Origin: an uncultured Candidatus Saccharibacteria bacterium
Lineage (GTDB): Bacteria; Patescibacteriota; Minisyncoccia; 2-02-FULL-40-12; GWA2-44-9
DNA length: 64,000 bases
NCBI GenBank assembly: GCA_964491455.1
Contig: CAZBFM010000001.1
Coordinates: forward strand, 447,868-511,867
Direction: 5' to 3'
This document shows positions 13,734 to 53,854 of this stretch, piece after piece. The notes beneath the pieces are model-generated. The model was not told where the DNA came from and did not search any database. It was given only the letters and a program-made list of their open reading frames with translations. How positions within the stretch are numbered: the stretch's first letter is position 1; each line of letters opens with the position of its first letter. The translations under genes were made by a program, and so were the position numbers.

Positions 13734-13816
13734 GCCCGGGTGGTGGAATGGCATACACGTGCGACTCAAAATCGCATGGCCGCAAGGCCTTGTGGGTTCA
13801 AGTCCCACCCCGGGCA
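13734..13816 (+). tRNA. tRNA-Leu (anticodon CAA), class II with long variable arm
   Basis: Acceptor stem GCCCGGG/CCCGGGC, 7 bp. Anticodon stem TGCGA/TCGCA with loop CTCAAAA. Variable hairpin GGCCGCAAGGCC. T-arm GTGGG-TTCAAGT-CCCAC. Discriminator A. CCA is not encoded. Confidence 0.85.
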
Positions 13817-13911
13817 CAGTACGTTCTTTCTACCACATCATTGCTCTACTAGAACTCGTCGTCGAGATCGCATACCGCGACCCGTGCCACGATGAGCTCT
13901 AGGGAGTCGTG

Positions 13912-21897: not shown

Positions 21898-23640
21898 ATG
21901 GATGCATCCCTTCTCGAACATCAGCGACACACCCTTGCTCATCTGTTAGCAGCGGCTGCGCTCAAATTCGACCCGTCTGCAAAGCGCACAATTGGCCCAG
22001 CGATCGATACGGGATTCTATTACGATTTTGAGTTTTCGAAACCTCTTTCAGACGAGGATCTGAAAAGCATTGAATCGGAAATGAAGAAAATCCTCCCTTC
22101 ATGGACGTCTTTTTCACATACAGAAGTTTCAGCGGATGAAGCGCGCACTCTCTTCAAAGACAACCCTTACAAGCTTGAGCTCGTCGATGAGATTGTAGCT
22201 AAAGGCGAGAATATTACCCTCTACACATCGGGTGACTTCACTGATCTCTGTCGCGGAGGACATATCGAAAATCCGTCGCTCATCGATCTCGATTCGTTCA
22301 CGCTCGATAAGCTTGCTGGAGCGTATTGGCGCGGGGATGAGAAAAACGCACAACTCACACGCATCTACGGACTGGCATTCGCGACAGCTGATGAGCTAGC
22401 ATCGTTCATTGAGCGGCGCGAGGAAGCCAAGAAGCGCGATCATCGTATACTCGGCAAACAGCTCGGCCTTTTTATGATTTCCGATGATGTTGGTCCGGGG
22501 CTCCCACTCTTTTTCCCCAAAGGTGCCATTCTGCGCCGCACCGTAGAAGACTTCATCTCCACACTTCAAGAGCGTCGCGGGTACCAGCCAATTTGGATTC
22601 CTCATATCACGAAGGGTAAATTGTATGAAATCTCGGGCCACCTCGACAAATATGACGCGATGTATCCGCCCATGCACCTGACCGATGAGGCACAGTACTA
22701 CCTCAAGCCCATGAATTGCCCTCACTTTATGATGCTCTATCGCGAAGTGCCACATTCATATCGTGAGCTACCCGCTCGGTACGTCTGCACGACCACCAAC
22801 TATCGCTACGAAAAATCTGGTGAGCTCGCTGGTCTTACACGCGTACGCGCGCTCACGCAAGATGATTGCCATGTATTTATGCGTCCCGACCAAGTCGAAA
22901 GCGAAATCGGACGTATGCTCGACATGATTGATGAGGTATACAAAGCGTTTAGCTTCCACGACTTCTATGTTCGCATCTCGACACGAGATCCCAAAAATGC
23001 AGAAAAATACATCGGCAGTGCGACGGTATGGGAGCAATCCGAAGCTGCGCTCGCCAAACTCATCGCTGAACGTGGCTGGAATCATGAAGTCGGCGTAGGC
23101 GAGGCGGCATTCTATGGCCCCAAACTCGATTTCATCTTCAACGATGTCCTTGGTCGCCCATGGCAACTGTCCACCATTCAGCTCGATATGAATCTGCCCG
23201 AACGCTTCGAGCTCGAATACACGGGCGACGATGGTGCCAAGCACCGGCCCGTGGTCGTCCATCGTGCCATTCTTGGCTCTACAGAGCGCTTCTTAGGCAT
23301 CCTCATCGAACACTACGGTGGCGCGTTTCCATTATGGCTTGCGCCAGTCCAAGTCTCCGTGCTTCCTATCAGTGACCGACATCTCGAGCACGCCGAAGAG
23401 ATCGCCTCGGAATTGCGCTCTCGCGGCTTCCGCGTCGAAGTAAACACCGATAACGACACCATCGGCAAAAAGATTCGCGCATCTGAAACGATGAAAATCC
23501 CCTACGCAATTATTCTTGGCGACAAGGATATTGCGGCCGAAGCAATTTCGGTTCGCAAGCGCGGAGGAGAAGATCTCGGCCAGCTCAAACTCGAAGCATT
23601 CATTGAAGTGCTTGCAACAGAGCAACGTTCGAAAAAATAA
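21898..23640 (+). CDS. thrS: threonyl-tRNA synthetase (lacks N-terminal TGS/N1 domain)
   Basis: Class II motifs (YLKPMNCPHFMMLY, HRAILGSTERF) and editing-domain histidines (HTLAHLLAAA). The protein begins directly in the N2 domain. Confidence 0.95.
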   Translation: MDASLLEHQRHTLAHLLAAAALKFDPSAKRTIGPAIDTGFYYDFEFSKPLSDEDLKSIESEMKKILPSWTSFSHTEVSADEARTLFKDNPYKLELVDEIVAKGENITLYTSGDFTDLCRGGHIENPSLIDLDSFTLDKLAGAYWRGDEKNAQLTRIYGLAFATADELASFIERREEAKKRDHRILGKQLGLFMISDDVGPGLPLFFPKGAILRRTVEDFISTLQERRGYQPIWIPHITKGKLYEISGHLDKYDAMYPPMHLTDEAQYYLKPMNCPHFMMLYREVPHSYRELPARYVCTTTNYRYEKSGELAGLTRVRALTQDDCHVFMRPDQVESEIGRMLDMIDEVYKAFSFHDFYVRISTRDPKNAEKYIGSATVWEQSEAALAKLIAERGWNHEVGVGEAAFYGPKLDFIFNDVLGRPWQLSTIQLDMNLPERFELEYTGDDGAKHRPVVVHRAILGSTERFLGILIEHYGGAFPLWLAPVQVSVLPISDRHLEHAEEIASELRSRGFRVEVNTDNDTIGKKIRASETMKIPYAIILGDKDIAAEAISVRKRGGEDLGQLKLEAFIEVLATEQRSKK

Positions 23641-25569: not shown

Positions 25570-27039
25570 TCAATTTGTCAATTTTTCACGCAACAACTGC
25601 TCTGCGAGTTGCGGATTTGCTTTACCTTTTGAAAGCGCCATAACCTTTCCAACGAGAGCCTTGAGTGCGGCTTCTTTGCCCGCCTTAAAATCGGCGACTA
25701 TTTTTTCCGATTGTGCGATCGCATCTTCGACATACAGATTCATGGATACAGCATCGGATACTTGCGCCAAATCGCGCTCACGAATAATATCTTCAGGATC
25801 TTCGCCGGTCTCCCACATCGCCTGCAGCAACGTCTGCGCGCCCGCGCTTCCTACGATGCCGCTGGAAACGCGAACGACAAAGTCGGCGAATGCTGCTGGA
25901 GTGATTTTCGTGTCATGAGGAGTGGACGATGCAGCAAAGAGCTTTGGCTGTAATTGCGTGATGAGCCAATTTGCAGCTGTCTTTGCAAGTTTGCCATAAT
26001 CCGTCGATTCGCCCGTGAGTGGATTATCTTCGTGCTTCAGTTCCGAAACGACCTCCTCGAAATAATCTCCGAGCTCCTTGAATACAACGAGAATCTCAAC
26101 ATCTGCTTGTGGCAGCCCATACTCCTTGGCAAAGCGCACACGTCGTGCTGCGGGCAATTCGGGAAGTGCGGCACGGATAGCATCAATCTCAAGCTCAGAA
26201 ATCACAATAGGTGGCAAGTCGGGTTCGGGGAAATATCGATAGTCCGCGCTTCCCTCTTTGATGCGCTGACTGACCGTTTTTTGGTGAATATCATCCCAAC
26301 CCCGTGTCTCCTGCACGAGTGCGCCACCAGACTCAAGCACATCGATTTGTCGCTTCACTTCATAGTCAGCAGACTTCGCCGCAGCTGAAATCGAGTTAAT
26401 ATTCTTCACCTCGACTTTCGTACCATATTCTTTTTGTCCTTTGGGGCGAACGGAGAGGTTTACCTCGACGCGCATCTGTCCCTTTTCCATATCGGCGTCA
26501 GACGCCTCAAGATATCGCAAAATGAGCTGCAACTCAGTTGCGAATCGACGGACATCTTCAGCTTCCGAAAGGTCAGGGTGCGTCACCAGCTCCATCAGTG
26601 GCACCCCTGCACGATTATAATCAACGAGGGAGTAATCCGCGCCTGGCACGTGCATCAACTTCCCTGCATCTTCTTCGAGATGGATACGTTCAATGCGAAT
26701 CGTCTTTCCGTTGGCTTCGAGCTTCCCTTCTCTACAAAAGGGAAATTGAAATTGAGAGATTTGGTATCCCTTCGGGAGGTCAGGGTAAAAATAGTTCTTC
26801 CGTTCAAAAATGGAGTGCTTCTCGATGGTGCAACCAAGAGCCAAACCGACAGCAATAATCTTCTCAATGGCAGCACGATTGATCACCGGCAACGTACCCG
26901 GGTGCCCCATACAGATCGGACAGACATTAGTGTTCGGCGTCCTCTCAAGAGCATCATTCTTAGAATCACAAAACATCTTTGTTTTGGTGTTCAGCTCCGC
27001 ATGTATTTCCAAGCCAATGGTAGTGAGATACTCTTGCAT
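25570..27039 (-). CDS. gatB: Asp/Glu-tRNA amidotransferase subunit B
   Basis: GLEIHAELNT, VCPICMGHPGTLPV and the GatB/YqeY C-terminal domain. Start moved to MQEYLTT. Confidence 0.9.
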   Translation of the reverse strand: MQEYLTTIGLEIHAELNTKTKMFCDSKNDALERTPNTNVCPICMGHPGTLPVINRAAIEKIIAVGLALGCTIEKHSIFERKNYFYPDLPKGYQISQFQFPFCREGKLEANGKTIRIERIHLEEDAGKLMHVPGADYSLVDYNRAGVPLMELVTHPDLSEAEDVRRFATELQLILRYLEASDADMEKGQMRVEVNLSVRPKGQKEYGTKVEVKNINSISAAAKSADYEVKRQIDVLESGGALVQETRGWDDIHQKTVSQRIKEGSADYRYFPEPDLPPIVISELEIDAIRAALPELPAARRVRFAKEYGLPQADVEILVVFKELGDYFEEVVSELKHEDNPLTGESTDYGKLAKTAANWLITQLQPKLFAASSTPHDTKITPAAFADFVVRVSSGIVGSAGAQTLLQAMWETGEDPEDIIRERDLAQVSDAVSMNLYVEDAIAQSEKIVADFKAGKEAALKALVGKVMALSKGKANPQLAEQLLREKLTN

Positions 27040-27103
27040 GTGGTGACAGTTTAGCACGATTTTAGAGTAAAAAAAGCCCCACACGTAGTGTGGGGCAGCG
27101 ACG

Positions 27104-27748
27104 TCATGAGGCTCGCTGATGGGCTTGCACGATAGCATCCGTCATCAGGCCAGCGACGACATCAGGCGTCATATGGAGAGGCGACGTATCTATTCGCAGC
27201 CACGATTTTGCAAAAGCACCACCGAAGTACATTTCATAAGCGCGGTGTACGGATTCGTGAAATTCTCTCTTCTCATTATCAAGTCGATTCTCTGCACCTC
27301 GCATCGCCAGACGCTTCATGCCTACGTCCAGATTAACGGTGAGGAGAATCGTGAGATCAGGCACGAGCCCCTTCGTTGCCAGCCTAATTGCCTCAAGGGC
27401 GGCATCGCGAGGAATACTGCGACCTTCAACCTGATACGCGATACTCGATAGAATAAAGCGGTCGCACACAATCACACGTCCACCAGCAAGCGCTGGCTCA
27501 ATAACATCCTCTACATGCTGTGCGCGATCAGCTTGAAAGAGCAAGAACTCTGATCTACTACAGGGCGTAGCCGATCCATCAAGCAGCAACTTTCGAATTG
27601 CAACCCCTACCTGAGTGCCGCCGGGCTCCCGTGTACGCAAGGGATTGCATCCGCGCAGCGCAAGCTCACGCGTCACCTGCTCAATGGCAGTCGTCTTCCC
27701 GGATGCCTCCGGACCCTCAACAGTGACGAAAAATCCTCTCGTTGTCAT
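27104..27748 (-). CDS. tmk: thymidylate kinase
   Basis: P-loop VEGPEASGKTT and DRF/LID region. Confidence 0.9.
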   Translation of the reverse strand: MTTRGFFVTVEGPEASGKTTAIEQVTRELALRGCNPLRTREPGGTQVGVAIRKLLLDGSATPCSRSEFLLFQADRAQHVEDVIEPALAGGRVIVCDRFILSSIAYQVEGRSIPRDAALEAIRLATKGLVPDLTILLTVNLDVGMKRLAMRGAENRLDNEKREFHESVHRAYEMYFGGAFAKSWLRIDTSPLHMTPDVVAGLMTDAIVQAHQRAS

Positions 27749-31635: not shown

Positions 31636-31935
31636 TTATTCCATAGCGTCTCGGCTGGGTTTGAGTCCGGAGAATCCGGCATCAATCCAAATTCGAGCAC
31701 AACGAACAATGTTTCTAGCTTTGTCGGGAGTCTCTATGCCAACTTCAAAGAGATCCGCGTCGGATTTCCAATCATCCAGCAAATCTTGCACGTGCACAGC
31801 GTGGGGAATTGACTCGCTATGGTAATCCCTGATGCCTTCGGCTTTCAAGGCACGTGCCGCTTCGAGTACGCGCTCGTAGCTGATCGGTTTTCGCTCAAGG
31901 CGGGGTTCGAGATTCTGAGGAATACTCTCGCTCAT
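31636..31935 (-). CDS. hypothetical small protein (99 aa)
   Basis: Its start codon overlaps the pheT stop (ATGA, 4-bp overlap). Confidence 0.45.
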   Translation of the reverse strand: MSESIPQNLEPRLERKPISYERVLEAARALKAEGIRDYHSESIPHAVHVQDLLDDWKSDADLFEVGIETPDKARNIVRCARIWIDAGFSGLKPSRDAME

Positions 31936-34013
31936 CGTATTTTTGCTCCAAGTTGCGCCTGAAGAGCCTGCTGGATCTCCAACAGTGCCTTTTCCACTTC
32001 GATATCCGTCAGCGTACGCTCATCGGAGCGAAATACGATATGGAACGCGACACTCTTCACCAGCGACCTCTCGGCGGCATCTTCGTTTTGCTTTTCTTTT
32101 CCCGTGGGAACGAAGATATCAAATACGTCCACATCCTGCACGAGCTGCTGGGTATCAGATTCCTGCACGACCTGAAGAATAGTGTCGATCTGAGTGGCTT
32201 GAGGAACCAAGATTGCCACGTCACGAATGACATCGGGGTATTTCGGTAATGGCTCAAATTCGCGCTCGCGCTGTGCAGACTCTATAAGAGACCGTAAATC
32301 AAGCTCGGCAACCGCGGCAGATCCCTTGAGCTTCAAGGCGGACGCAACACGACCATGCACTGAACCAATAAAACCGATAACTCGATCATTGCCATCTCGT
32401 ATCACAGCACGTCGACCTGGCAGCGTCGCGTTAATGGCACCCGCATCCCACGCCATTGGCTCCGCATCATCAAAATAGACATCAGCCAATCCCAATCGCT
32501 CAGCGATGAGACTCACCGCGCCCTTAAGATCAAAGAACATCTCGCGCGATGTATCTCGATGAGCCGCAACGAGGCTGATTCTGCTTTGTTCCTTGCCCTC
32601 TCCAACGCTCCTAAATACATGGCCGGTCTCAAATAACTGCACCGCGTCATGAAAACGAAGATTATCTCGCGCATTGATCAAAAGTCGCGGAACGAGAGAT
32701 GTGCGCAACCATCGATATTCGGGCGATTGAGGCTGTGCCAATTCATAGGCATGTGTAGCCTTGAGCACTTCCATCATTTCATCTGAAAGAAACACGTAGT
32801 TGTACACCTCACTATACCCAGCGCCGACCAATAGTCGCCCAATCGCGCTTCGCTCCCGCAGATACGTATACTCATCCCAAACCACAGCGGTCTCCTCTTT
32901 CACCCATGAGTGCTCACTATAGATAGGAAGCGCCGGAGCAATCGACGTGATAGCATCAAAGCCATACACCCTGCCGATTTCTTCGGCGAGATCCTCTTGC
33001 CCAATTACATCCGATCGTCTCGTGGGTATTTCGACAATGCACTTCTCACTCTGCTCACGCTGCACCTGAAAACCTAGCGACTCCAAAATTCCCTGCATCT
33101 GCGAAGACTGCAATTCAATGCCAAGAAGATCGCGGACGTACTGCTCGTCCAGGAGCACCGATCGACTCGTCACCGGATGAGGGTACACATCCACAATGGA
33201 AGAATGCGCGCTTCCCTGCGCCACCTTGGCAATCAATTCTGCGGCGCGCTGAAGTGCGGGTGCGGTGAGATTCGGATCGACTCCATATGAGAAACGAATC
33301 GAAGCATCCGTTCGGAGATTGAGCTTGCGAGATGTTGCCCGGATAGATTCGGGCAGAAAATTCGCCGCCTCCAAAAGGATATCCGTTGTGTTCTCGCTAA
33401 TGCCCGTCCCCACTCCTCCCTTGATACCCGCAAGCGCGATGGGCATGTCACCGTCGGCAATCACCAACATCGTCTCGTCGAGAGCATATGTAGTCCTGGC
33501 TTCATCAAGCGCCACAAGCTGCTCACCAGCGCGAGCAAGTCGAACGTCAATCTGCTTCACACTCGATGCGTCGAATGCATGCATGGGTTGACCTAATTCC
33601 AGCATCACATAATTGGTCACGTCGACCACATTGTTGATGCTCTGCAATCCGCATAACGCCAATCGCTCCACGAGCCACGTTGGTGATGGTCCAATGCGAA
33701 CATTCCGAATCAATAAACCGCTATAACGCACACAAGATGCATCGTGAATCGTCACCTTCTTGACAGGCTCATCGCTGACACGCCACTCATAAGAGGGTGC
33801 CGTGAATCGCTGCGACGTTAGCGCCGCTAACTCACGGGCAACACCGAGGTGTGACAACGCGTCGGGTCGATTTGGCAAAATATCAATATCGAGTACGCCC
33901 GGCACATCAGAAAGCACTACCTCAAACGCTTTCGACGTCAATAATGCAGACGCATCTTCAATCGATAATGACGAGGCCGAAAGTTCCTGTATCCATGCAA
34001 ACGAAAATTTCAT
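31932..34013 (-). CDS. pheT: phenylalanyl-tRNA synthetase beta subunit (short form, 693 aa, no EMAP/tRNA-binding domain)
   Basis: N-terminus [12 protein letters not shown]3/B4 and B5 domains, and FDAS-like C-terminal core. Overlaps pheS by 3 bp. Confidence 0.9.
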
Positions 34014-35477: not shown

Positions 35478-35551
35478 GCGGTGGTAGCTCAGCTGGTTAG
35501 AGCGCTTCCCTGTCACGGAAGAGGTCGCGAGTTCGAATCTCGTCCACCGCG
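35478..35551 (+). tRNA. tRNA-Asp (anticodon GTC)
   Basis: Acceptor stem GCGGTGG/CCACCGC. D-arm GCTC-AGCTGGTTA-GAGC. Anticodon stem CTTCC/GGAAG with loop CTGTCAC. T-arm GCGAG-TTCGAAT-CTCGT. Discriminator G. No CCA. Confidence 0.85.
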
Positions 35552-35554
35552 CAT

Positions 35555-40424: not shown

Positions 40425-40457
40425 AGAGGAGAGCATCGTGCTCTCCTCTTTTTTATT
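40425..40457. terminator. hairpin AGAGGAGAGCA-tcg-TGCTCTCCTCT + T6ATT between convergent genes
   Basis: 11-bp perfect stem with a T-run on the + side. Confidence 0.6.
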
Positions 40458-42282
40458 GCACCACACCTTCACCCGCATGCCCCTCGACATTCGTCGTCGT
40501 CACGTCTCGCGCTGATGACTGAACTGGTTGCTGTGTAAAACCATCTACACCATTGAGCGCTGCTCCTGATATCAACTTGGGAGCTTGCCCGATTAGATTA
40601 CTAGAAGGCGTAAGTCCGACCTGAAAGGTTGCCTCGTATCGCGGCGCTCCACTACCCGTGCCATAGGGTACCGTGCCAACATTCCACGTTATGGTTTTCG
40701 TTTTTGCATCAAATGTTGGCGCAGCTCCTTGCACAGACTGTGCAAGGCCCTTAAAAGCAATACCCGGAGGTAGCGTGGCGCTTACCACGCCTGAGCGAAT
40801 ATCATTGCCGGGGTTAGTAATCTGCCAACGGACGGTCATGATAGTCTCCGATCCAACCAGTGGCGGCAACGGACCAGACCCAAATGGAGCATCATACAGA
40901 ACAGATTGCGTGAATGACGGCTGAGAGCCAATCTTGGTTGAAACGCTATCGAGCGCGAACACCTCTTCACTATCAATTCCCGATGGGACATTATTGGTAC
41001 TCAAGCGGGCGGTCGCTTTGACGACAAAACTCTGCGCTCCGCCCGATAATCCTGCCTTGAGCGGAATTGTAAATTCAAATTTTCCACGCTTACTCGGGGC
41101 AAGCGCTCCAAAGTCTGAAACACCAGCAGCATCAAACGTAATCGTACGAGTTGCATCACTATATGACCCCTGCGTAGACTGCAGTTTTGTTGTATCAAAC
41201 ATTTCACCGTCGAGCTTCACGCTGAGTGCTAATCCAAGAAGAGTAAAACGGGAATTATTTGCATACGTAACAATATAGCGAAGCGTGTCCCCCGGAAACG
41301 CAACATACTCAACACCCGACGATGGTGCGATCGAAACTGAAATCAGCGGACTCGAGATCACGGTAAATGCTTCGGTACGAGCATAGTCCACATACTGCCC
41401 ATTGAGATTGCGCCGGACCGACGCAGTTACCGTTTTGGTTTCGCCCTCATTCCCAGAAAGCACCCCCGTAATAGTGTACCGTTTTCCTTGATTTACGGTG
41501 AGCGAAGAAATGTCCCACACATTTGAATCCGTTGATGCTTCGGGTCGCACCGACTGCACCGAGAAACCCTCAGGATAGGTTAAGGCAAGCTTCATATCCA
41601 TTGCATCGGCGTCAGTATTATTTCGAACATCAACAACATACTGAATCGGCTGGCCGGAGACAGTTGTGGGAGGCGCAACGAGCGTGACCTCTACTGGAAG
41701 AGAGCCGATCATCGTAGCAACTGTTACCTCTTTTTGGAACGAAGATCGCAGCGTTCCTGCGCTGAAAATCATGTTCAGGCGCGCCGTACGAATAACCCCC
41801 TTGTCCCCCACAATAAAGACTTTTACGTCACGTGTTCCCGTCTCTCCCGGTGCGAGCACATCAACGGTAAACCCCTCACTCTCAGGAGTCGTTGGCATTC
41901 CATCCACCATTACAATTGAATCTTGCGGGTAAAATAATCGAAAGTTGATTTTCGAAAGGGTCAACCGCGTATTGTTGGTGTAGTGAATTGTATAGGTCGC
42001 CTCATCCCCCGACTTTACGGATGCAGGAGCTTCGATAGTGAGAGCGATATCTTTTTCTGCAAATGAGCTACCACCCCACCACAATGCTGCCACCGTAAAA
42101 ATCAATAGGCTACCGGCGGTCGCCACAAGCATCTTGAGGAGCTTCTTTGATGTGCGCTGCATAGATGGTGGTACTTCGGGAGTGTGGGAATTTGGAGCAC
42201 TCGACTCAGCTGGCACGGCAGGACTAGGCGTCACACGAGGTGGCGGAGTAATAACGGGCGATATCTCAAAATCAAACGGCAT
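40453..42282 (-). CDS. large membrane-anchored surface protein with repeated DUF11/CARDB-like beta-sandwich modules (609 aa)
   Basis: Pro-rich N-terminus then a TM helix (MLVATAGSLLIFTVAALWWGG). At least three repeats of the pattern xYxVxxxNNxxxxLxxxxLxxxxPxG. Thr/Ser/Gly-rich. Confidence 0.6.
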   Translation of the reverse strand: MPFDFEISPVITPPPRVTPSPAVPAESSAPNSHTPEVPPSMQRTSKKLLKMLVATAGSLLIFTVAALWWGGSSFAEKDIALTIEAPASVKSGDEATYTIHYTNNTRLTLSKINFRLFYPQDSIVMVDGMPTTPESEGFTVDVLAPGETGTRDVKVFIVGDKGVIRTARLNMIFSAGTLRSSFQKEVTVATMIGSLPVEVTLVAPPTTVSGQPIQYVVDVRNNTDADAMDMKLALTYPEGFSVQSVRPEASTDSNVWDISSLTVNQGKRYTITGVLSGNEGETKTVTASVRRNLNGQYVDYARTEAFTVISSPLISVSIAPSSGVEYVAFPGDTLRYIVTYANNSRFTLLGLALSVKLDGEMFDTTKLQSTQGSYSDATRTITFDAAGVSDFGALAPSKRGKFEFTIPLKAGLSGGAQSFVVKATARLSTNNVPSGIDSEEVFALDSVSTKIGSQPSFTQSVLYDAPFGSGPLPPLVGSETIMTVRWQITNPGNDIRSGVVSATLPPGIAFKGLAQSVQGAAPTFDAKTKTITWNVGTVPYGTGSGAPRYEATFQVGLTPSSNLIGQAPKLISGAALNGVDGFTQQPVQSSARDVTTTNVEGHAGEGVVQ

Positions 42283-42296
42283 ACGCGGTTATTCTA

Positions 42297-42866
42297 TCAT
42301 GAAGCCGACGTCGCCACCACGTCGTAGAGGACATCAATGGCCGATAGTCTGCGTTGCGCAATGGTCTCAAATTTCTCATCCAACGCCGAGCGTGCCCATC
42401 GCGACAGCATCTCCCCGGAACCTGCAACCCCATATCCCAGCGCTTGCAAAAAGCGCTCCTGCCCTCGACGATAGAGTGCAAGCACAGTCTCCGGAGAAGA
42501 GCGATCAAGGCTCTGGAGAATTTCTTGGAGCGTGCCCCATAACTCTTCATCTGCTTGCGCCTCGAAGACCATAAGATCCACCGCCTGCAAAAAGACCTGA
42601 GCGACACTCCAGGTGCGAGGACTTTGCTTGGCAAGACCAAGCGATGAAAGCGCCTGAGTCCCCGTCATGATATAACCGCTCTTGCCATCGACGAGCTCGC
42701 ATTGAATATGGCTTGCGTCATCAAGCGCTAGCGCCTGCTTACTATGACGCTGAAGGGAGCCTTTCGCAATTGCCGTTATCTTGCCGAGCTCACGACTATA
42801 GAGCACGACCAATTGATCGTGCTCGCGAATCGCCTGCTTTCGAATGACGATGGCTTCAATGTGCAC
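42297..42866 (-). CDS. recO: DNA repair protein RecO (short form)
   Basis: N-terminal OB-fold pattern (IVIRKQAIREHDQLVVLYSRELGKI...AKG) and a helical C-terminus. 189 aa, so it is shorter than canonical RecO. Confidence 0.55.
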   Translation of the reverse strand: MHIEAIVIRKQAIREHDQLVVLYSRELGKITAIAKGSLQRHSKQALALDDASHIQCELVDGKSGYIMTGTQALSSLGLAKQSPRTWSVAQVFLQAVDLMVFEAQADEELWGTLQEILQSLDRSSPETVLALYRRGQERFLQALGYGVAGSGEMLSRWARSALDEKFETIAQRRLSAIDVLYDVVATSAS

Positions 42867-42871
42867 GAATG

Positions 42872-43324
42872 CTATTTATAAAAAACCGTACGTTCGCGTG
42901 CGTCATCGTGCGCAGGATCTCCCGATGGATTGTCTTTTTTCAAAATCAACGCTCCTCGGTTACTCACTGAAGTATCGGGAGTAAACTCAATCGTTCCCTC
43001 AAATGGGACCCAATCAGTTGTCATCCACTCATCAGTAGCTGTTACATGCGACTCGGCAATAATTCTTCCATCCCAATCCGTGAGTATGATAGGAAATGAA
43101 GCCTCAAAAAACCATGTGCCCCGTGCACGGCCCGTGATCTTAAGGGGCGATGATATAGACTCACCTTCACGAGGATTATCGAGAACTACCTGTGAATCCG
43201 ATCCCTGTATAAATGGAGACGTCGGCACTTTATCGAGCGCTACTGGGCGATACACAAACAACCGCCAGCAAGCAAGTGCGGAAAACACTATGAGCAGAGC
43301 CAGCGCTGTGCGTTTGATCCTCAT
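42872..43324 (-). CDS. Gmad2 immunoglobulin-like domain protein (GerM-related), secreted
   Basis: N-terminal signal/TM. ITGRARGTWFFEASFPIILTDWDGRII...WMTTDWVPFEGTIEF matches the Gmad2 pattern. Confidence 0.55.
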   Translation of the reverse strand: MRIKRTALALLIVFSALACWRLFVYRPVALDKVPTSPFIQGSDSQVVLDNPREGESISSPLKITGRARGTWFFEASFPIILTDWDGRIIAESHVTATDEWMTTDWVPFEGTIEFTPDTSVSNRGALILKKDNPSGDPAHDDARERTVFYK

Positions 43325-43332
43325 TGCGAGTA

Positions 43333-43641
43333 TTACTCAATTTCCCCGCCTGCTTTCTGCCAGTCAGAAAGACCTCCTATATTTACCACTTCACCAAACC
43401 CATGTGCGAGGAGGATGTCCTTTGCCTCCTCGGCGCGAACACCACCGGCGCAATACACATACACTTTCTGATCGAGCGGAATATCAGGGATATCATCAGA
43501 GCGGAGACGAGAAATCGGCCAATGGATCGCTCCTTCAGCGCGGACATCATTCCATTCATCTTCGCCTCGAACATCAATGAGAGCAGCCGCTCCCGACGCA
43601 ACATCATGCACTGCTTGCTGAACCTCGTGTGGATCGTTCAT
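43333..43641 (-). CDS. rhodanese-like single-domain sulfurtransferase
   Basis: Active-site loop VYVYCAGGVRAEEA. Confidence 0.8.
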   Translation of the reverse strand: MNDPHEVQQAVHDVASGAAALIDVRGEDEWNDVRAEGAIHWPISRLRSDDIPDIPLDQKVYVYCAGGVRAEEAKDILLAHGFGEVVNIGGLSDWQKAGGEIE

Positions 43642-43659
43642 TGAAATATGATTAGACTG

Positions 43660-44148
43660 CTACCTTTTTGCGAGTATTCGCCCGGGTCTCCATGGTGTAC
43701 CTAAGAGAGGCAACGCCCAACGGTCTATACCATAGTATCCAGCAACTTTCCATGCCATGACCAGTCCCAGCGACAATACGCCAAGTATGGGGTTCACACT
43801 AACGGTGCCCGCGAGAAGAAAATTCAGATTCATAAATGCACCAAAGAACGCAGCAATTCCCGTGAAAAGCCCCACCATCAAGCCGAGACCCACCGCAAAT
43901 TCACCCCAGGCGATGACGTGACTCCATATTTCTACATGGGGCATAACCGTGCCCTGCAAGAAAGCCGCGTACCACGATTGCACGTCAGGGTGTGGCCCGC
44001 CAACCTTTGAAAGCGCCCCCTGAATGAATCCGGCGAGTGCTCCGCCCGCAGAATCGCCAACCCATGCCGCAGAATGGAGCTTCCCCCAACCAGACTCAAC
44101 CCATGCCCAGCCGACATACAATCGAATAAGCAACCAAACCATTGCCAT
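43660..44148 (-). CDS. DoxX family membrane protein
   Basis: Four TM helices with the DoxX-like pattern. Track ORF trimmed to MAMVWLLIRLYVGW. Confidence 0.65.
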   Translation of the reverse strand: MAMVWLLIRLYVGWAWVESGWGKLHSAAWVGDSAGGALAGFIQGALSKVGGPHPDVQSWYAAFLQGTVMPHVEIWSHVIAWGEFAVGLGLMVGLFTGIAAFFGAFMNLNFLLAGTVSVNPILGVLSLGLVMAWKVAGYYGIDRWALPLLGTPWRPGRILAKR

Positions 44149-44341
44149 CTTGGTATTCGCGAACACAAATAATGCAACGGGAGGATCTGAAAAAGTAATA
44201 TGCGAGTTTTGTTTCATATCAGCAGTATACGCTTCACGACTCGGAAATCAGAGCTCATCTGTGGATGAATAGCTTCGGGTCGACAAATCATGTGAATGCG
44301 CTATACATATTTCATCATAGCTCGCTCATTGAAAGGATTAT

Positions 44342-44824
44342 ATGCTAACCCTTCGAGTCCACGTCTCCGTTGCCTCATTGAACATTCCGCGTCGTCTTAT
44401 CCTTCAAGATCAAGACAGCACACGCCATGCATCATTTGACGTAGATCCAGGCGTCATCACTATCTTAGACCTGCTCCGTGATGGGCAATATGACGCTTCA
44501 ACCTCAGTATATTTCTGTTGGACGGAAACCATTCGGAGATTGGGTGGCGTCGTGGAACGAGTTCATATTGCGAATATTGCCGACAATGCAACGAAGCGCA
44601 TTTCAATTTTCATTCGCTCTGGATCTCACGTTCATGAGCTTGAATGCACAGCAGCAGATGGCATCTTTATGAAAATCATCAACGATTGCCCGCTTACGTG
44701 CTCAGAAGATGATTTTGAAAAGCTTGGGATATTTCATTGCGTCACTACCGACGCTAACTCGCGCACTGTTCAAGAACGCCTTTCAGTATTTGAACGTCTC
44801 AACCCGATCACCCCCAAAGCGTAA
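44342..44824 (+). CDS. hypothetical protein (160 aa), lower GC than its neighbours
   Basis: Lone plus-strand gene between minus-strand genes, with its own hairpin terminator. Roughly 46-49% GC against ~55% in flanking genes. Confidence 0.5.
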   Translation: MLTLRVHVSVASLNIPRRLILQDQDSTRHASFDVDPGVITILDLLRDGQYDASTSVYFCWTETIRRLGGVVERVHIANIADNATKRISIFIRSGSHVHELECTAADGIFMKIINDCPLTCSEDDFEKLGIFHCVTTDANSRTVQERLSVFERLNPITPKA

Positions 44825-44828
44825 GCGC

Positions 44829-44860
44829 AAACCCCTACATCGTGTAGGGGTTTATATTTT
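44829..44860. terminator. hairpin AAACCCCTACA-tcg-TGTAGGGGTTT + ATATTTT
   Basis: 11-bp stem starting 5 nt after the stop of the 160-aa gene. It is also downstream of the convergent alkD-like gene. Confidence 0.55.
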
Positions 44861-45562
44861 CCCATCAAGATACGCCTGGCGTAGTCGCCGCGGAAAGCGT
44901 TCTATCGCGTATCGAAGCATCGTTCGTGGCATGCGATGGTAGTGTTTCTTCAAAAAATCCTCCTCCACGTCTTGTCCGCATTTTTTACCAACCTCGCGAA
45001 GCATCCAGCCAACTGCTTTTTGAATGAGGTCCTCGTTATCCTGCAGAAGAATGCGTGCAATGTTAAACGTTGGAACCCATCTTCCTTTTTTAATAAATGC
45101 GAACGTGGCCAGCACAGCAACACGTCGGTGCCAGAGCAACTTCGACTTCGCCATCGACACCAATAACATGCCCGAATCTTTGGTAGCATAAAGATGCTCT
45201 CCAATGATGTTTGGGGCAGAAAGATCGACGAGATCCCAGTTGTTAATGCGAGCAAGTGAATCGCGATAACATCGAAACACACTCCGACGCTTTTTTGCAT
45301 CTCCATGCTCAAACATACGCACAAGAATCAAGAGTGCGCAGAGTCGTTCTTCGTGATACTCGGAACCAAGAAGTGTCCTCACCTCATCGAGCGTGATGTC
45401 GCGATGCTGCTTCACTAGCGCGCGAATCTCTGGCACCGTGACACCCAGGAAAACATCACCCTCTCCGTACTGGCCCTCGCCTGTTTTAAAAAAACCAGAA
45501 AGCACGCGCGCCTTTTGGGGATTCGCACGCTCTCGTAATTGTGCTCGCAACTGCTCAAGCAT
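44852..45562 (-). CDS. DNA alkylation repair protein (AlkD-like HEAT-repeat glycosylase)
   Basis: FFKTGEGQYGEGDVFLGVTVPEIR is the family N-terminal signature. All-helical. Confidence 0.75.
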   Translation of the reverse strand: MLEQLRAQLRERANPQKARVLSGFFKTGEGQYGEGDVFLGVTVPEIRALVKQHRDITLDEVRTLLGSEYHEERLCALLILVRMFEHGDAKKRRSVFRCYRDSLARINNWDLVDLSAPNIIGEHLYATKDSGMLLVSMAKSKLLWHRRVAVLATFAFIKKGRWVPTFNIARILLQDNEDLIQKAVGWMLREVGKKCGQDVEEDFLKKHYHRMPRTMLRYAIERFPRRLRQAYLDGKI

Positions 45563-45565
45563 GAG

Positions 45566-48500
45566 CTATTTATTTATACCAATCCACAATGATACTCCCG
45601 GTGCGAGATCAAAATTACGCTCAATCGTTATCGTCGACGTATCAGGTGCATTCTCAAATGCTGACAAGCCGGTATCCTTACGAATCATCTGCTCATGCAC
45701 AAGGAGCGCGCTCGTGACTTCCTGATCCTCACTCCACCAGCGACACGACACTTCATCTGAAACCTGACATCCAATTTCCTTGCGCATATCTTGGATTGCT
45801 CGCATCACTTCGCGAGCAAAGCCCTCAGCACGAAGCTCGCTTCCGATGGACAGGTCGAGCGACAATTCTTTGCCAACCCCGTATACCACCTTCTTTACAT
45901 TGAGCTCGTCCAAGATAAGCTGCTCCAAATCACGATCCAATGGTGCTCCCGGTACTGTTACCGACGATAACGGTTGGCGCACTTTAATGGCGGCATTTTT
46001 TCGGATAGCAAGACCGGCGCTAATACTTGTTCGCACTCGAGTCATTTCTGCGTACAATCGCTCAGCATCAGGTGCCGTGTCTGCACTCGGCCAATCAGCC
46101 AAATGCACAGATTCAGCATCTCTCTTATCGCGCAGCTTTAGCCACAAGTCTTCAGCCATGAACGGCGTAAACGGTGCCAGAAGCAATGAGAGTTGCTTGA
46201 GAATCGCTCGCAACAGCGGCAACGCATCGGTGCGCTTGCGACTGCGTCGTAGCCACCACTGACTAAAATCATCAACAACAAATCGCTCAATATCACGCGA
46301 CGCCTCGGTCAGCTCGTACGCCTCAAGGCGCTGTGTCGTCGCAGCAGTAAGATCAGCCAAACGCGCCAAAATCCATGTATCCAACAAGTTTGCCGCAGGC
46401 ACCTCATTGCTGATTTCGTGCTCCGCACTGTAGAGCTCATAGAAGCGAATGCAATTTTGGAGGGTCATCACAAAACCCGTAAGACGCTCACGTACTTCTT
46501 TGAGAGCAAAATTCTTCGATTCTCCAGGAGCATTAATCGTATAGAAGTACCAGCGAGCAGCATCGACACCAACAGCCTCGATAACGTCATCGGGCTTCAC
46601 CATATTGCCCTTCGACTTGGACATCTTTATTCCTTTTTCATCAAGCACATGTCCATTCGACAACACCGTACGATACGGCGCGCCCCTACCAAGAAGCGTA
46701 CTCACGGCAAGCAACGTATAGAACCAACCGCGCGTTTGATCCACGCCTTCAGCAATGAAATCCGCGGGGAAATTAGCTTCTGAAAGCTCAGCATTTTCGA
46801 ATGGTGCGTGCCATTGAGCGTATGGCATGGCGCCGGAATCAAACCACACATCACACAACTCGGGGATACGATGCAGGAGCGCCGTTGAGCCCTTTGCTTT
46901 TAGCACAATGTCATCCACATAGGGGCGATGCATATCGAGATTCCCCCGCTCATCGCGAGGGATGTTACGAACAACCAGTTCAGACACCTGCGCAAAGCCG
47001 ACAAAATCATCCCCTCGTGCGTTTTTTTCTTCGATAGATTTTTCTTGGCTCCAGCCCTGTGCCACATCGGTCATAAGCCAAATCGGATATTCATGACTAA
47101 CGATCAACACATCCTCATCCGCATACGACTCGTTGAGCTCCTTCAACACGCCCCACATGCGCGCCTTCAAATCACTCAAAGACTCACCCCCGGGCGGACG
47201 CTGATCAAACTTCGACTCATACGTCGGATAAAGCTCGTGGTACTTCGTATCGTGACATCCGACGAGCGATGGCCCGAGATGTATTTCACGTAGACGCTCA
47301 TCGGAGACAACCTTTTTGACTCCCAGAATATCCGCAGCGATAGTTGCCGTTTCATGCGTGCGCTGAATGGGAGACGTAATGATGGTGTTTATCGTACGCT
47401 TCGAAGCCTTTAAATGCTCTTTTAGTTTCTCCGCGGCATCGACTACTTGTTGTCGTCCTGCGTCAGTGAGCGGTGACTCACCCTGACCCTGATCGATCAC
47501 GTGTGCAAGATTTTTCGTGGACTCACCATGTCGCATCACCCATAATCGCGCAGGCTTATCCGCTCGATAGGTGTCTAAATCTTCGAGTGAGCGAACGACC
47601 AGCGTTTTTTCTCCATCTTTGGATCGCCAAATGGGCAACGGGGTGCCCCAGTAGCGCTCGCGTGAGAATGCCCAATCCTTGCCCTCGCGAATCCACTGAC
47701 CAAATCGTCCGTCTTTGAGATGCGAGGGAACCCAATTGACCGTGTTGTTATTGGCGAGCATCTGGGCATTGAGCGCGCTTACACGGATAAACCAACTGTC
47801 TTTTGCGTAGTACAACAGCGCCGTGTCGCAACGCCAGCAGAATGGATATTCGTGCTCATAGGGCAGCACACGCAAGATGAGTCCACGCTCCGTCAGTGAA
47901 TCGATAATCATCGCTTCCGTCGTCGATGATTTCACGTACTTGCCATCGAGCTCATCGGAGACACCGACGAATTTCCCCTGCTCATCAACGGTATGATGCT
48001 TCACCAAATCAAGCTTCGTGCCCAGCTGGTAATCGTCCTCGCCATACATGACTGCAGTGTGCACCACTCCCGTGCCATCAGACGTGGAAACAAAGTCCGC
48101 CACGTACACCTGATACGACGAAGGCACCTTGAGTTTCCGTACGGAAAAGAGTGGTTCGTATGTTGTACCGACGAGTTGCTCGCCCGAAAATTCGCGTTCA
48201 ACGACTGCGGACTCTCCGAGTACGGTCCTTACCAAGTCGGTGGCAAGAATTACATACTCCTCCACTTCGCCGTGGCGCACAAGCGCATAGGTGATATCAG
48301 CTCCTACGGCAAGCGCAACGTTGCCAGGAAGCGTCCATGGCGTTGTAGTCCACGCAAGAATCGAAGTATGTTCAGGAAGCTCAAGGTTCGATGAAGCTAC
48401 GCGAAACTTCAAATACACCGAATTGTCGGTGACGGTCTTATATCCCTGCGCAACCTCGTGACTCGATAATGGCGTACCGCATCGCGTGCAAAACGGAACC

Positions 48501-49012
48501 ACTCGATGCGCCTGATAGAGCAGATCCTTATCGGCGATTTGTGCGATCACATTCCAGAGAGACTCAATGTATGAACTCTCATACGTCACATATGGATGCT
48601 TCAAATCCACCCAGTAGCCAATCCGCTTGGTAAACTGCTCCCACTGTTCGCGATACTTCCATACCGATTCTTTGCATTTGCGATTGTATTCCGCAACTCC
48701 ATACACCTCAATGTCTTTCTTACTCTTGAATCCAAGTTCTTTTTCCACCGCGAGCTCAACGGGCAATCCATGTGTATCCCATCCCCCCTTGCGGAGTACG
48801 TAGCGTCCGCGCATGGTTTGAAAACGACAAAACAAATCCTTGAATGCTCGTGACACGAAATGGTGGATGCCGGGGCTTCCATTGGCCGTTGGCGGACCCT
48901 CAAAAAACACGAACGGCTTTCCGCCGACACGGTGCGTCATACTCTTCTCAAAAATATTCTGGTCTTCCCAGAATTTGAGCACACTCTCTTCTCGCTGTTG
49001 GACATCAGTCAT
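45566..49012 (-). CDS. ileS: isoleucyl-tRNA synthetase with an inserted histidine-phosphatase (PGAM-like) domain
   Basis: HIGH-region PPTANGSPGIHH, CP1 editing domain (TSDGTGVVHTAVMYGEDD), WAFSRERYWGTPLPIW, DVWFDSG, KMSKS, and the anticodon-binding C-terminus. An extra ~190-aa domain with RHGES, SPIQRT, DERLREIHLG and IVSHE motifs sits between PLPIW and HRPYVDD. Start moved to MTDVQQ at 49012. Confidence 0.95.
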   Translation of the reverse strand: MTDVQQREESVLKFWEDQNIFEKSMTHRVGGKPFVFFEGPPTANGSPGIHHFVSRAFKDLFCRFQTMRGRYVLRKGGWDTHGLPVELAVEKELGFKSKKDIEVYGVAEYNRKCKESVWKYREQWEQFTKRIGYWVDLKHPYVTYESSYIESLWNVIAQIADKDLLYQAHRVVPFCTRCGTPLSSHEVAQGYKTVTDNSVYLKFRVASSNLELPEHTSILAWTTTPWTLPGNVALAVGADITYALVRHGEVEEYVILATDLVRTVLGESAVVEREFSGEQLVGTTYEPLFSVRKLKVPSSYQVYVADFVSTSDGTGVVHTAVMYGEDDYQLGTKLDLVKHHTVDEQGKFVGVSDELDGKYVKSSTTEAMIIDSLTERGLILRVLPYEHEYPFCWRCDTALLYYAKDSWFIRVSALNAQMLANNNTVNWVPSHLKDGRFGQWIREGKDWAFSRERYWGTPLPIWRSKDGEKTLVVRSLEDLDTYRADKPARLWVMRHGESTKNLAHVIDQGQGESPLTDAGRQQVVDAAEKLKEHLKASKRTINTIITSPIQRTHETATIAADILGVKKVVSDERLREIHLGPSLVGCHDTKYHELYPTYESKFDQRPPGGESLSDLKARMWGVLKELNESYADEDVLIVSHEYPIWLMTDVAQGWSQEKSIEEKNARGDDFVGFAQVSELVVRNIPRDERGNLDMHRPYVDDIVLKAKGSTALLHRIPELCDVWFDSGAMPYAQWHAPFENAELSEANFPADFIAEGVDQTRGWFYTLLAVSTLLGRGAPYRTVLSNGHVLDEKGIKMSKSKGNMVKPDDVIEAVGVDAARWYFYTINAPGESKNFALKEVRERLTGFVMTLQNCIRFYELYSAEHEISNEVPAANLLDTWILARLADLTAATTQRLEAYELTEASRDIERFVVDDFSQWWLRRSRKRTDALPLLRAILKQLSLLLAPFTPFMAEDLWLKLRDKRDAESVHLADWPSADTAPDAERLYAEMTRVRTSISAGLAIRKNAAIKVRQPLSSVTVPGAPLDRDLEQLILDELNVKKVVYGVGKELSLDLSIGSELRAEGFAREVMRAIQDMRKEIGCQVSDEVSCRWWSEDQEVTSALLVHEQMIRKDTGLSAFENAPDTSTITIERNFDLAPGVSLWIGINK

Positions 49013-49090
49013 TGTGCGCTCATAGTACGAAAAAACTGCATATTTTGCAAAAAGAAAAGCGCAGGATTTCTCCTGCGCCCACATTGGACA

Positions 49091-51836: not shown

Positions 51837-52442
51837 TTAGAGAAGCTGTAATTCTGACAATGCCGCTTCGTAGTAGGCGATCGCCTGGCGAGCCTCGGTG
51901 TATCGTAAGAAATAATCCATCTCATGTGCTAGTCGATTACGGATCTTGTGCGCCCACCACACACCATCAAGAGCCAGTAATGTTCCTGGCTGGATATTGC
52001 TCAATCGATCACCAAATGTTGCGCCAGCAAAGCCCGCTCGAGCCAATGCATCATCAACGAGTTTGTCTGCTTCCATAACTGCAACCTTCCATTGTGCCTC
52101 CTGCGGAGCATCAAGATGCGCCAACAGCGCGTCCCATCGTTTCCGAAGCAACCCATTTTCAACGACCGCCACGGGCTGAGCTGCCGGAGTCGTCACCTGA
52201 GGAGTGCCAGCACTCTTGAGTGCCTTTCTCTGGATTTTGATGAATGCGATAAATCCCGCCAGCAGAATACAGACCATAATTGCAATCTGATTCAATACAA
52301 CCTGGACATCCCCCGTAACAATACGAGTGTCGATAAATTCGAAGACACGCGCTGGTGCATGAAAGCTCACGTCAATATTCGTTGCTCGATACACGGAACG
52401 AACCGATGCAACAACGATGTCAGGAATTGTCTCGTATATCAT
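51837..52442 (-). CDS. hypothetical membrane-anchored protein (201 aa) with a HEPN-like Rx4H motif
   Basis: TM helix IAIMVCILLAGFIAFIKI. C-terminal WWAHKIRNRLAHEMDY contains R-x4-H. Its start overlaps the gatA stop (ATGA). Confidence 0.45.
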   Translation of the reverse strand: MIYETIPDIVVASVRSVYRATNIDVSFHAPARVFEFIDTRIVTGDVQVVLNQIAIMVCILLAGFIAFIKIQRKALKSAGTPQVTTPAAQPVAVVENGLLRKRWDALLAHLDAPQEAQWKVAVMEADKLVDDALARAGFAGATFGDRLSNIQPGTLLALDGVWWAHKIRNRLAHEMDYFLRYTEARQAIAYYEAALSELQLL

Positions 52443-53854
52443 TCGTGAGAAGTACTAGACTGCTCGACATGCCAAGCAACAGTAAGAATAGTTGCCTCCT
52501 GAAATGCGTTTCCAATGAGCTGTAACCCGACCGGCATTTTTGATTGAACACCAAGTCCACACGGAACCGACAAGGCAGGAACACCCGCCAAATTCACGGG
52601 CACCGTATAGATATCAGAAAGATACATCGAAAGCGGATCGGAAGACTTCTCTCCGAGCTTGAAGGCAACCGAGGGTGATGTTGGACCCGCGATGACATCA
52701 ACCTTTTCAAACGCACGATCAAAATCCTGCTTAATCAGTGCGCGAACTTTTTGCGCCTTCATATAATATGCATCAAAATAACCAGCCGATAGCGCATACG
52801 TGCCAAGCATAATGCGTCGCGTCGGCTCAGCTCCCAAACCCTCGGTGCGACTCTTGGTATACACCTCGAGTAAGGATGTGGCATTTGGTGATTGGTAACC
52901 ATATCGAATACCGTCATATCGTGAAAGATTTGCAGCACATTCGGATGGCTGAACGATGTAGTACACGGCAAGCGCATACTTACTGTGAGGCAATGAAATC
53001 GGGACAATCACCGCACCACGCTTTTTGAGATTTTCAATGGCATCCTCAACACATTGACGAACTTCTGGCTCCAGTCCCTCACCAAAATACTCCTCGGGTA
53101 TACCGATGCGAAGTCCAGTAATATCCCGCTCGAGCGATTCGCTATAATCAGGCACATCCCGAGGCACCGTCGTGAGATCGAGTGGGTCGTGCCCAGCAAT
53201 CTCCGCCAGCACAAGCGCTCCATCGCGAACCGTCTTGGTAAATGTGCCGATCTGATCCAACGATGAGGCAAGCGACATCAGACCATGTCGCGATACACGG
53301 CCATAGGTTGGCTTGATCCCTACCACGCCACACAACGCAGCAGGCTGACGAATTGATCCGCCCGTATCAGAGCCGAGAGAAAACACGCAAAGATCCCCTG
53401 CGACAGCCGCTGCAGATCCAGCTGAACTGCCTCCCGGAACGCGCGTAGTATCCCATGGATTACGAACGATCCCGAAGGCACTATTTTCACCTGATGAACC
53501 CATGGCGAACTCGTCCATATTCGTCTTGCCTAATAGTTGCGCACCAGCATCATTGAGTTTCTTAAATACGGTGCCATCGTAGGCGCTCACGTAGTTTTCA
53601 AGTATTCGAGATCCGCCAGTCGCAATTGTGCCAGCAACCAGCATATTGTCCTTGAGCGCATACGGAATACCGGTAAGCACAGAGGTGTCGCGTGCTGGCG
53701 ATGAGTACACAAACGCTCCGGGGCGATACGCGTTGAGCTCGTTGTTATTTTCAGCGATTCGTCGTTGGTAGTGCTCGAAAAGTCGCTCAGGCGTGAGCTC
53801 CCCTTTCGCAAAAGCTTCTCGCGCGCTCGCAATGGTAAATCCAAGATCCTTCAT
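52439..53854 (-). CDS. gatA: Glu-tRNA(Gln) amidotransferase subunit A
   Basis: Amidase signature [33 protein letters not shown]. Confidence 0.9.
   Translation of the reverse strand: [471 protein letters not shown]

Follow-up and report, generated by a model that had tools for sequence, protein, structure and literature searches.

Among the connective peptides (CP) of isoleucyl-tRNA synthetase (IleRS), CP3 comprises residues 473-534 in the Candida enzyme and residues 459-526 in the yeast enzyme, and holds a zinc motif in Thermus IleRS. The CP2-3 linker (ARDWNVSRNRYWG) just before CP3 lines the pocket for the CCA end of the tRNA and for reveromycin (PMC7191050; PMC7955072). Type-2 (eukaryote-like) bacterial IleRS of the GXHH subclass are represented by Priestia megaterium IleRS2 (PDB 8c8u-8c9d) and Deinococcus IleRS2, and the GXHH form of the HIGH motif has been linked to mupirocin hyper-resistance in IleRS2 (Brkic et al., doi 10.1101/2023.01.31.526100). 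Here, an ileS gene was analyzed in a stretch of 64,000 nucleotides (the window) from an uncultured Candidatus Saccharibacteria bacterium (GCA_964491455.1, contig CAZBFM010000001.1, positions 447,868 to 511,867). The analysis showed one polypeptide that unites a predicted complete type-2 (GXHH-class) IleRS with a predicted complete branch-1 histidine phosphatase, which is placed at the tip of CP3 through short linkers. The architecture is real, widespread and present in public databases with automatic domain matches, and a full-text literature search that included two papers on IleRS evolution found no description of an IleRS or a valyl-tRNA synthetase (ValRS) with a histidine phosphatase.

The best match of the whole synthetase was to the type-2 enzymes named above (797 bits). 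The domain order was the same as in P. megaterium IleRS2; the window protein differs from that enzyme by 208 amino acids in CP3 in the place of about 7 and by the loss of the CP3 knuckle cysteines. The nearest named NCBIfam relatives of the synthetase were the type-2 MupA/MupB enzymes, of which it is not a member (739 and 721 bits for NF000257 and NF000258 against cutoffs of 1900). The consensus PGIHH was found across the whole insert-bearing family, and this GXHH motif suggests that the whole clade is of the mupirocin-hyper-resistant type.

For the insert, the closest folds were those of the phosphoserine phosphatase PspA (4ij5), PhoE (1h2e), GpgP Rv2419c (4pz9/6s2q), the riboflavin-pathway HFP (9mmh) and CobC (6e4b), to which it was only 20-27% identical. 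All of these are free-standing proteins, whereas the insert is nested in another enzyme. The insert clade has H-[GE]-[DY]-P-[LI]-W at the position where small branch-1 phosphatases usually have HGG. The NCBIfam equivalog models stayed below their cutoffs, with 85 of 225 bits for dPGM_arch, 67.5 of 162.9 for CobC, 65 of 261 for GpmB, 59 of 350 for PspA and 32 of 74.5 for SixA. By these scores, the insert belongs to the PF00300 superfamily and to no characterized subfamily of it.

Three described proteins resemble parts of this design. The top NCBIfam match of the insert was PRK07238, a bifunctional RNase H/acid phosphatase of the Rv2228c type, with 94 bits against a cutoff of 326 and through the phosphatase half only. 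In that protein, too, a CobC-like histidine phosphatase is joined to a nucleic-acid enzyme and the reason for the fusion is unclear, but it is a terminal fusion to RNase HI, whereas the domain in the window is an insertion. A precedent for an IleRS with an unrelated enzymatic domain is NF040702 ('ileS_w_GNAT'), where the domain is a GNAT acetyltransferase; the window protein is not a member of this family, as it reached 291 bits against a cutoff of 1999 and had no GNAT match in Pfam. No NCBIfam model was found for the IleRS-histidine phosphatase architecture. The histidine-phosphatase domain of TFIIIC tau55 (Tfc7; 2yn0, 6yj6) is a far more distant case: it is eukaryotic and terminal, and it belongs to a transcription factor, not to a synthetase.

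Architecture of the ileS product

The minus-strand open reading frame 45566..49084 was a single open frame without interruption, and the start of ileS was set at the ATG at 49012 by homologues that are exactly 1148 amino acids long. An earlier note on this DNA had described one uninterrupted ileS frame of about 1150 amino acids, which agrees with the 1148 amino acids obtained from this start, although the gene had to be reassigned to the minus strand. The main parts of the gene are listed below.

45566..49012, minus strand: ileS open reading frame (1148 amino acids and TAG stop), type-2 IleRS with nested phosphatase (Pfam, NCBIfam, homologue lengths)
47567..49012, minus strand: IleRS N-terminal part, residues 1-482, with the first Rossmann half, CP core, CP1 editing domain, CP2 and the start of CP3 (8c8w 10-477; Pfam tRNA-synt_1 at residues 11-485)
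46943..47566, minus strand: inserted block, residues 483-690 (208 amino acids), nested in CP3 (gap in the 8c8w alignment; AlphaFold2 confidence)
47039..47545, minus strand: Pfam His_Phos_1 match, residues 490-658 (coordinates confirmed by translation)
45569..46942, minus strand: IleRS C-terminal part, residues 691-1148, with the remainder of CP3, the second Rossmann half, and the anticodon-binding and C-terminal domains (8c8w 485-873; Pfam Anticodon_1 and DUF5915)

The Pfam domains followed each other in the order tRNA-synt_1 (5e-116) in two stretches with His_Phos_1 between them, then Anticodon_1 and DUF5915. His_Phos_1 (PF00300) was matched over profile positions 1-165 of 194 with 117.3 bits against a gathering cutoff of 21.7 (E = 8.9e-34), a significant hit in the profile search that had been proposed as a check of the insert. 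The NCBIfam ileS model TIGR00392 scored 834.5 bits on the whole protein, above its curated cutoff of 621.4. In the alignment with the solved type-2 IleRS 8c8w from P. megaterium, query residues 4-482 corresponded to residues 10-477 and query residues 691-1066 to residues 485-873. The gap between these two stretches corrects the length of the block, estimated before at about 190 amino acids, to about 208.

Conservation and predicted structure of both enzymes

Conservation was analyzed in an alignment of 119 full-length homologues with identities from 96% down to 50%. The predicted catalytic residues R494, H495, R551, E576 and H640 were 100% conserved, S547 and R618 likewise, and E610 was conserved at 97%. 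The active-site features of the phosphatase and the signature motifs of the synthetase are located as follows.

47528..47533, minus strand: R494-H495 of the RHG motif, with H495 as the predicted phospho-acceptor (100% conserved in 119 sequences)
47360..47362, minus strand: R551, predicted phosphate-pocket arginine in the SPxxRTxETA motif (100% conserved)
47285..47287, minus strand: E576, predicted general acid/base (100% conserved; Asp in the stand-alone clade)
47093..47095, minus strand: H640, predicted second catalytic histidine, followed by the clade-specific P643-x-W645 (H640 100%, P643 96%, W645 92%)
48860..48871, minus strand: GIHH, residues 48-51, the non-canonical GXHH form of the class I HIGH motif (motif class: doi 10.1101/2023.01.31.526100)
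48320..48352, minus strand: WTTTPWTLPGN, residues 221-231, Thr-rich motif of the CP1 editing site (nearly all positions invariant in the family; P225 at least 90%)
46613-46627, minus strand: KMSKS, residues 796-800, in the second Rossmann half (motif)

All four phosphatase motifs named in the earlier note were found in place: LWVMRHGES at residues 490-498, GESPLTDAG at residues 511-519 with TSPIQRTHETA at residues 546-556, DERLREIHLG at residues 571-580, and VLIVSHEYPI at residues 635-644. Its statement that the canonical IleRS elements are intact also held, including the anticodon-binding domain: the residues of GIHH, of the CP1 editing motifs WTTTPWTLPGN and GTGVVH (the latter at residues 313-318) and of KMSKS were mostly invariant among 68 sequences and the rest were conserved in at least 90%. 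Both modules keep every catalytic residue, and the phosphatase is apparently active. The mean pairwise identity was 40% for the insert, 66-70% for the catalytic-core regions of IleRS, and 48-57% for the anticodon-binding and C-terminal domains.

AlphaFold2, run on the full-length protein with an alignment of 68 sequences, gave a mean predicted local distance difference test (pLDDT) of 88 and a predicted template modeling score (pTM) of 0.77. Within this model, most 10-residue blocks of the insert had a pLDDT of 90-97 and one had 87, while both junction blocks had 94. Folded alone, the insert was predicted with a pLDDT of 93 and a pTM of 0.90, in line with the independently folded domain that had been expected, and the model placed it in the PGAM-type α/β fold. 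The full-length model was best matched by type-2 IleRS structures in Foldseek (E about 1e-85). The net charge of the insert was -5, and the domain is therefore acidic.

Site of the insertion and the zinc knuckle

A WxxSRERYWG-type linker precedes CP3 in the ileS product. The query sequence WAFSRERYWGTPLPIW corresponds to the CP2-3 linker, and the insert therefore lies inside CP3. In most relatives the insert was bracketed by CxxC...CxxC, which places it at the tip of the zinc knuckle; the site had been named before as the CP2/Zn-knuckle position, but the subdomain is CP3 and not CP2. In the subclade of the window protein (about the top 35 matches), all four knuckle cysteines were gone, and the corresponding positions are given here.

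47603..47629, minus strand: WRSKDGEKT, residues 462-470, place of the first CxxC of the CP3 zinc knuckle, lost here (Cys at 464 in 70% of relatives)
46877..46906, minus strand: VLKAKGSTAL, residues 703-712, place of the second CxxC, lost here (Cys at 706 and 709 in 69% of relatives)

In this subclade, the insert may now do the structural work of the CP3 knuckle. In a stronger form, the whole module would be structural or a scaffold, either a rigid CP3 element that replaces the zinc knuckle or a surface for oligomerization or docking, with catalysis irrelevant. The lost cysteines fit such a role, as the insert may now stabilize CP3; the junctions are predicted to be rigid, and CP3 is a protein-docking surface in human IARS1. 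Most relatives, however, keep the knuckle cysteines and the insert together. Moreover, the five catalytic residues were invariant in the 119 sequences at a mean identity of 40% and in every full-length domain checked of the multi-copy proteins described below. A purely structural role is hard to square with this invariance and is considered very improbable. For engineering, the result shows that the tip of the CP3 zinc knuckle is permissive for domain insertion in IleRS and ValRS.

Distribution and authenticity of the nested architecture

PF00300 was present in 120 of the 120 best database homologues, which were about 1126-1212 amino acids long if full length. The named ones were from Candidatus Yanofskybacteria, Paceibacterota or Patescibacteria, and the records were mostly titled 'class I tRNA ligase family protein'. 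Since the proteins carry mostly this name only, a dedicated model would improve their annotation. The insert profile was also searched against one genome per species in GTDB, which returned at least 80 loci, nearly all of them from Patescibacteria by record title. One open reading frame of 1120-1300 amino acids with both the phosphatase RHG and the IleRS HRPYxD was found in 62 of the 80 loci listed, and the remaining loci were mostly truncated by contig ends or failed the motif filter. Targeted tblastn of nine loci that were atypical or failed the filter gave the order N-terminal IleRS, insert and C-terminal IleRS wherever the insert was present. Among the matches listed, the architecture was present in about 70 Patescibacteria species genomes. 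These searches showed that, judged by gene structure, a large clade of Patescibacteria (Paceibacteria) has the nested design as a stable trait, and that hundreds of uncultured bacteria of the candidate phyla radiation (CPR) share it. The writer of the earlier note knew of no such synthetase. No paper describing one was found here either, but the protein is not a one-off: the proposed alignment of homologues showed an insert common to a large Patescibacteria family in public databases and not unique to this genome.

The same data bear on whether the gene is an assembly chimera, a frameshifted pseudogene or the product of a mis-joined contig. Two relatives could be cited for such an origin, since the insert is frameshifted in L080, from a low-coverage metagenome-assembled genome (MAG), and contains a run of N in L048. 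Against it stand the uninterrupted frame in the window and the uniform GC content, with 0.50-0.51 in the inserted block, equal to the flanks. A protein of 96% identity came from an independent data set, and it and the 119 further homologues from independent assemblies had the same architecture, as had more than 180 homologous genes in total. Because independent assemblies share the architecture, the gene is neither a chimera nor a pseudogene, as the earlier note had stated, but carries a lineage trait. The artefact explanation is effectively refuted, with a negligible chance of being correct.

Nothing in the sequence hinted at an intein or mobile-element origin, and its composition was uniform; no formal test of this was made. 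Split IleRS genes were considered as intermediates and rejected: the break in L048 was the run of N, and the frameshift of L080 comes from a MAG covered about 1.9x. One insert-bearing IleRS contig of 8.5 kb (L009) was labelled 'Spirochaetia bacterium' and is likely a mis-binned CPR contig.

A stand-alone phosphatase next to ileS in a sister lineage

Directly upstream of an insert-less ileS, a sister lineage (Minisyncoccales/Paceibacterota) had a gene for a phosphatase of about 198 amino acids. Its stop overlapped the ileS start by 4-8 nucleotides, and the genes further upstream differed between loci. The stand-alone protein belonged to the same superfamily neighbourhood as the insert and had the SHGDPLW signature common to most inserts. 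In the insert-less IleRS proteins of these loci, KMSKS reads KLSKK. The loci with a stand-alone phosphatase and an insert-less ileS are listed below.

L069, 5980-9430: phosphatase and insert-less ileS
L076, 4721-8112: phosphatase and insert-less ileS
L081-L088: phosphatase and insert-less ileS
L093-L172: phosphatase and insert-less ileS

In a metagenome sample of 71 stand-alone phosphatase loci with enough downstream sequence, ileS adjoined the phosphatase in 42 and lay within about 600 nucleotides in 6 more (48 of 71 in total). The neighbourhood of ileS in the window, with recO and DUF11/CLIPPER, resembled that of the stand-alone-phosphatase loci. At L076, an open reading frame of 334 amino acids (3716-4720), Fic/DOC-like by eye only, lay between argS and the phosphatase-ileS pair and is probably incidental.

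Fusion partners, multi-copy proteins and ValRS

An exhaustive HMMER search with the insert returned 7495 matches, 365 of them at E <= 1e-10, and the best 150 cluster representatives were classified; 2 of the 150 were classified inconsistently between two BLAST thresholds. Of the representatives, 74 were IleRS, including six that had two phosphatase domains, and 3 were ValRS, including one that had four. A further 71 had no detectable aminoacyl-tRNA synthetase part, among which 11 (371-450 amino acids) were tandem two-domain proteins or longer and the others had at most 260 amino acids. No fusion partner other than IleRS and ValRS was found among these 150. The classification showed that this kind of putative phosphatase is linked specifically to the class Ia synthetases for Ile and Val. 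No N-terminal phosphatase-IleRS fusion was seen in the HMMER matches or the best 150 representatives; matches of about 660-700 amino acids that start in the insert were considered as such fusions and rejected, as their length fits contig-truncated genes. Free-standing tandem two-domain histidine phosphatases (370-450 amino acids) were among the closest relatives of the insert (P0297, P0318, P0351, P0363, P0370, P0375 and others).

The inserts occurred in two IleRS2 lineages, PPTANG.PGIHH (the window type) and PPFATG.PHYGH. In the latter, P0309, P0311 and P0362 (1419-1468 amino acids) had two intact phosphatase domains, either in tandem in CP3 or with one in CP3 and one just before the anticodon-binding domain. 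The P0362 cluster was found on contigs of up to 1.06 Mb. In the multi-copy proteins, R-H-R-E-H was kept in every full-length copy checked. The CPR ValRS that bear His_Phos_1 are given here.

P0383, P0333, P0246, P0398, P0433, P0434, P0442, P0447: ValRS proteins with His_Phos_1
Locus L089, 8001-11204: ValRS gene with His_Phos_1

The ValRS inserts sat between the two CxxC pairs of the equivalent zinc knuckle, and P0246 had four copies at two sites, all with apparently intact catalytic residues. The distribution was patchy, with the insert in only 6 of the 120 closest ValRS relatives, one of which was a Liptonbacteria protein (MBI4094437.1, GenBank). The valS loci with and without the insert were syntenic and had no adjoining phosphatase gene, which points to an independent capture of the putative phosphatase by ValRS. 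The idea that a neighbouring gene became the insert was considered as a general route and rejected for ValRS, where the insert-less valS loci had no adjacent phosphatase. In a crude neighbour-joining tree, taken as a hint only, the domains of ValRS and those of second copies stood apart from the main clade of IleRS inserts.

Proposed function of the nested phosphatase

The reading we prefer, with moderate confidence, is a bifunctional enzyme in which the phosphatase works alongside the synthetase as a functional partner and not as a passenger. It is based on the exclusivity of the fusion partners, the translational coupling in the sister lineage, the repeated choice of CP3 over an easier terminal fusion, and the multi-copy variants. 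The IleRS part would charge and proofread tRNA-Ile normally. The phosphatase part would hydrolyze a phosphomonoester via a phospho-His495 intermediate, with R494, R551 and H640 holding the phosphoryl group and E576 acting as the acid/base. In the sister lineage, a similar phosphatase would be supplied from the gene translationally coupled to ileS, and in the lineage of the window the partnership would have been hard-wired by insertion. The substrate would be a small, possibly nucleotide-like, phosphomonoester or phosphoanhydride present at the synthetase, since the fold neighbours and the acidic surface point to small molecules. The first candidates would be the AMP or pyrophosphate (PPi) that activation and editing release, or a different small phospho-ligand. 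The caution in the earlier note that any function of the insert is speculation was justified.

Several points weigh against this functional coupling. No NCBIfam equivalog cutoff was reached, and the restriction to the Ile and Val enzymes has no explanation. Histidine phosphatases are not known to act as pyrophosphatases, and a literature search on Parcubacteria and pyrophosphatase was of no help with the PPi proposal. The insert has diverged more quickly than the IleRS core, and 23 of the 71 stand-alone metagenome loci had neighbours other than ileS. Inserts were also found at no fewer than three sites in different proteins: besides CP3, one ValRS had an insert in the CP2 region and one IleRS had an insert at the junction that precedes its anticodon-binding domain. 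This variety implies that a precise geometry relative to the active site may not be needed.

The last three of these points also speak for a different explanation, in which an ordinary housekeeping metabolite phosphatase or mutase, mechanistically unrelated to aminoacylation, would sit in a permissive surface loop encoded by a large, essential and constitutively expressed gene of these tiny genomes, which guarantees its expression; the raw material would have been supplied by the gene next to ileS in the sister lineage. The closest folds and hidden Markov models were all of metabolite phosphatases and the domain is acidic, as this explanation would have it. No other His_Phos_1 gene was found within the 64-kb window, and the nested copy could therefore be the only one of the cell. 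This explanation is harder to reconcile with the restriction of the fusion partners to IleRS and ValRS among the best 150 representatives and with the acquisition of the domain by ValRS at loci without a neighbouring phosphatase gene. Insertion into CP3 happened repeatedly, whereas no fusion to the N-terminus was seen, although the overlapping upstream gene would make it far easier, and the two to four apparently active copies are hard to explain by expression hitch-hiking. Overall, a mere passenger is judged unlikely, though it is the main rival.

A tRNA or protein substrate was also considered. The module would then be a repair or antidote device, acting on a 3' phosphate of tRNA-Ile left by nuclease or toxin damage or on a synthetase modified by a kinase toxin. 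Two points fit this proposal, namely the anchoring of CP3 on the linker along the CCA-end pocket and the specificity of the association for tRNA-handling enzymes; the acidic surface does not, no reason for the Ile/Val restriction follows from it, and no toxin or kinase gene was consistently nearby in the neighbourhoods examined. An RNA-binding surface of the insert was considered and found to be unsupported at the net charge of -5. A 3'-phosphorylated tRNA end or a phospho-protein is thus a less likely substrate than a small molecule, and the repair proposal is improbable.

More generally, and tentatively, with a chance somewhat short of even, the CPR class Ia synthetases (IleRS in two lineages, and ValRS) may have repeatedly recruited active phosphatases for an unrecognized step coupled to aminoacylation or proofreading. 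The phosphatase would have been recruited as an operon partner, as a single insert in CP3, or in two to four copies. The coupled step could be the clearing of a nucleotide or PPi product, the destruction of a phosphorylated inhibitor, or the unblocking of a phosphorylated tRNA 3' end. If this were true, it would be a new auxiliary activity of aminoacyl-tRNA synthetases. Few enzymes have been studied as well as the aminoacyl-tRNA synthetases, and their accessory domains are well known in eukaryotes. The field would gain a new chapter from a second, unrelated catalytic domain that is acquired recurrently and nested in the catalytic body of a bacterial class Ia synthetase. CPR bacteria have minimal genomes, and most lineages are without cultured models. 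Where an essential translation enzyme carries a conserved and costly addition, a real physiological need probably lies behind it, which the substrate could reveal.

Other genes in the window

The Rfam scan of the window detected two tRNAs only and no leader RNA at ileS. The tRNAs were tRNA-Leu(CAA) at 13734-13817 (plus strand) and tRNA-Asp(GTC) at 35478-35552 (plus strand), and no tRNA-Ile was among them. Downstream of ileS, the region 40453-45562 (minus strand) encoded an AlkD-like DNA-alkylation repair protein, DoxX, a Gmad2 Ig-like protein, a short RecO_N protein and DUF11/CLIPPER. The pairing of recO and CLIPPER near ileS was seen again at stand-alone-phosphatase loci (L075, L081-L088). 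ThrRS (21898-23640), PheRS beta (31932-34013), GatB (25570-27138) and GatA (52439-53854) were of ordinary architecture, without a phosphatase domain. A long Rel/SpoT-type protein with HD hydrolase, RelA_SpoT synthetase and TGS domains was encoded at 10052-11965 (plus strand). Since this stringent-response enzyme is kept in the genome, a role of the insert as a (p)ppGpp hydrolase is less necessary.

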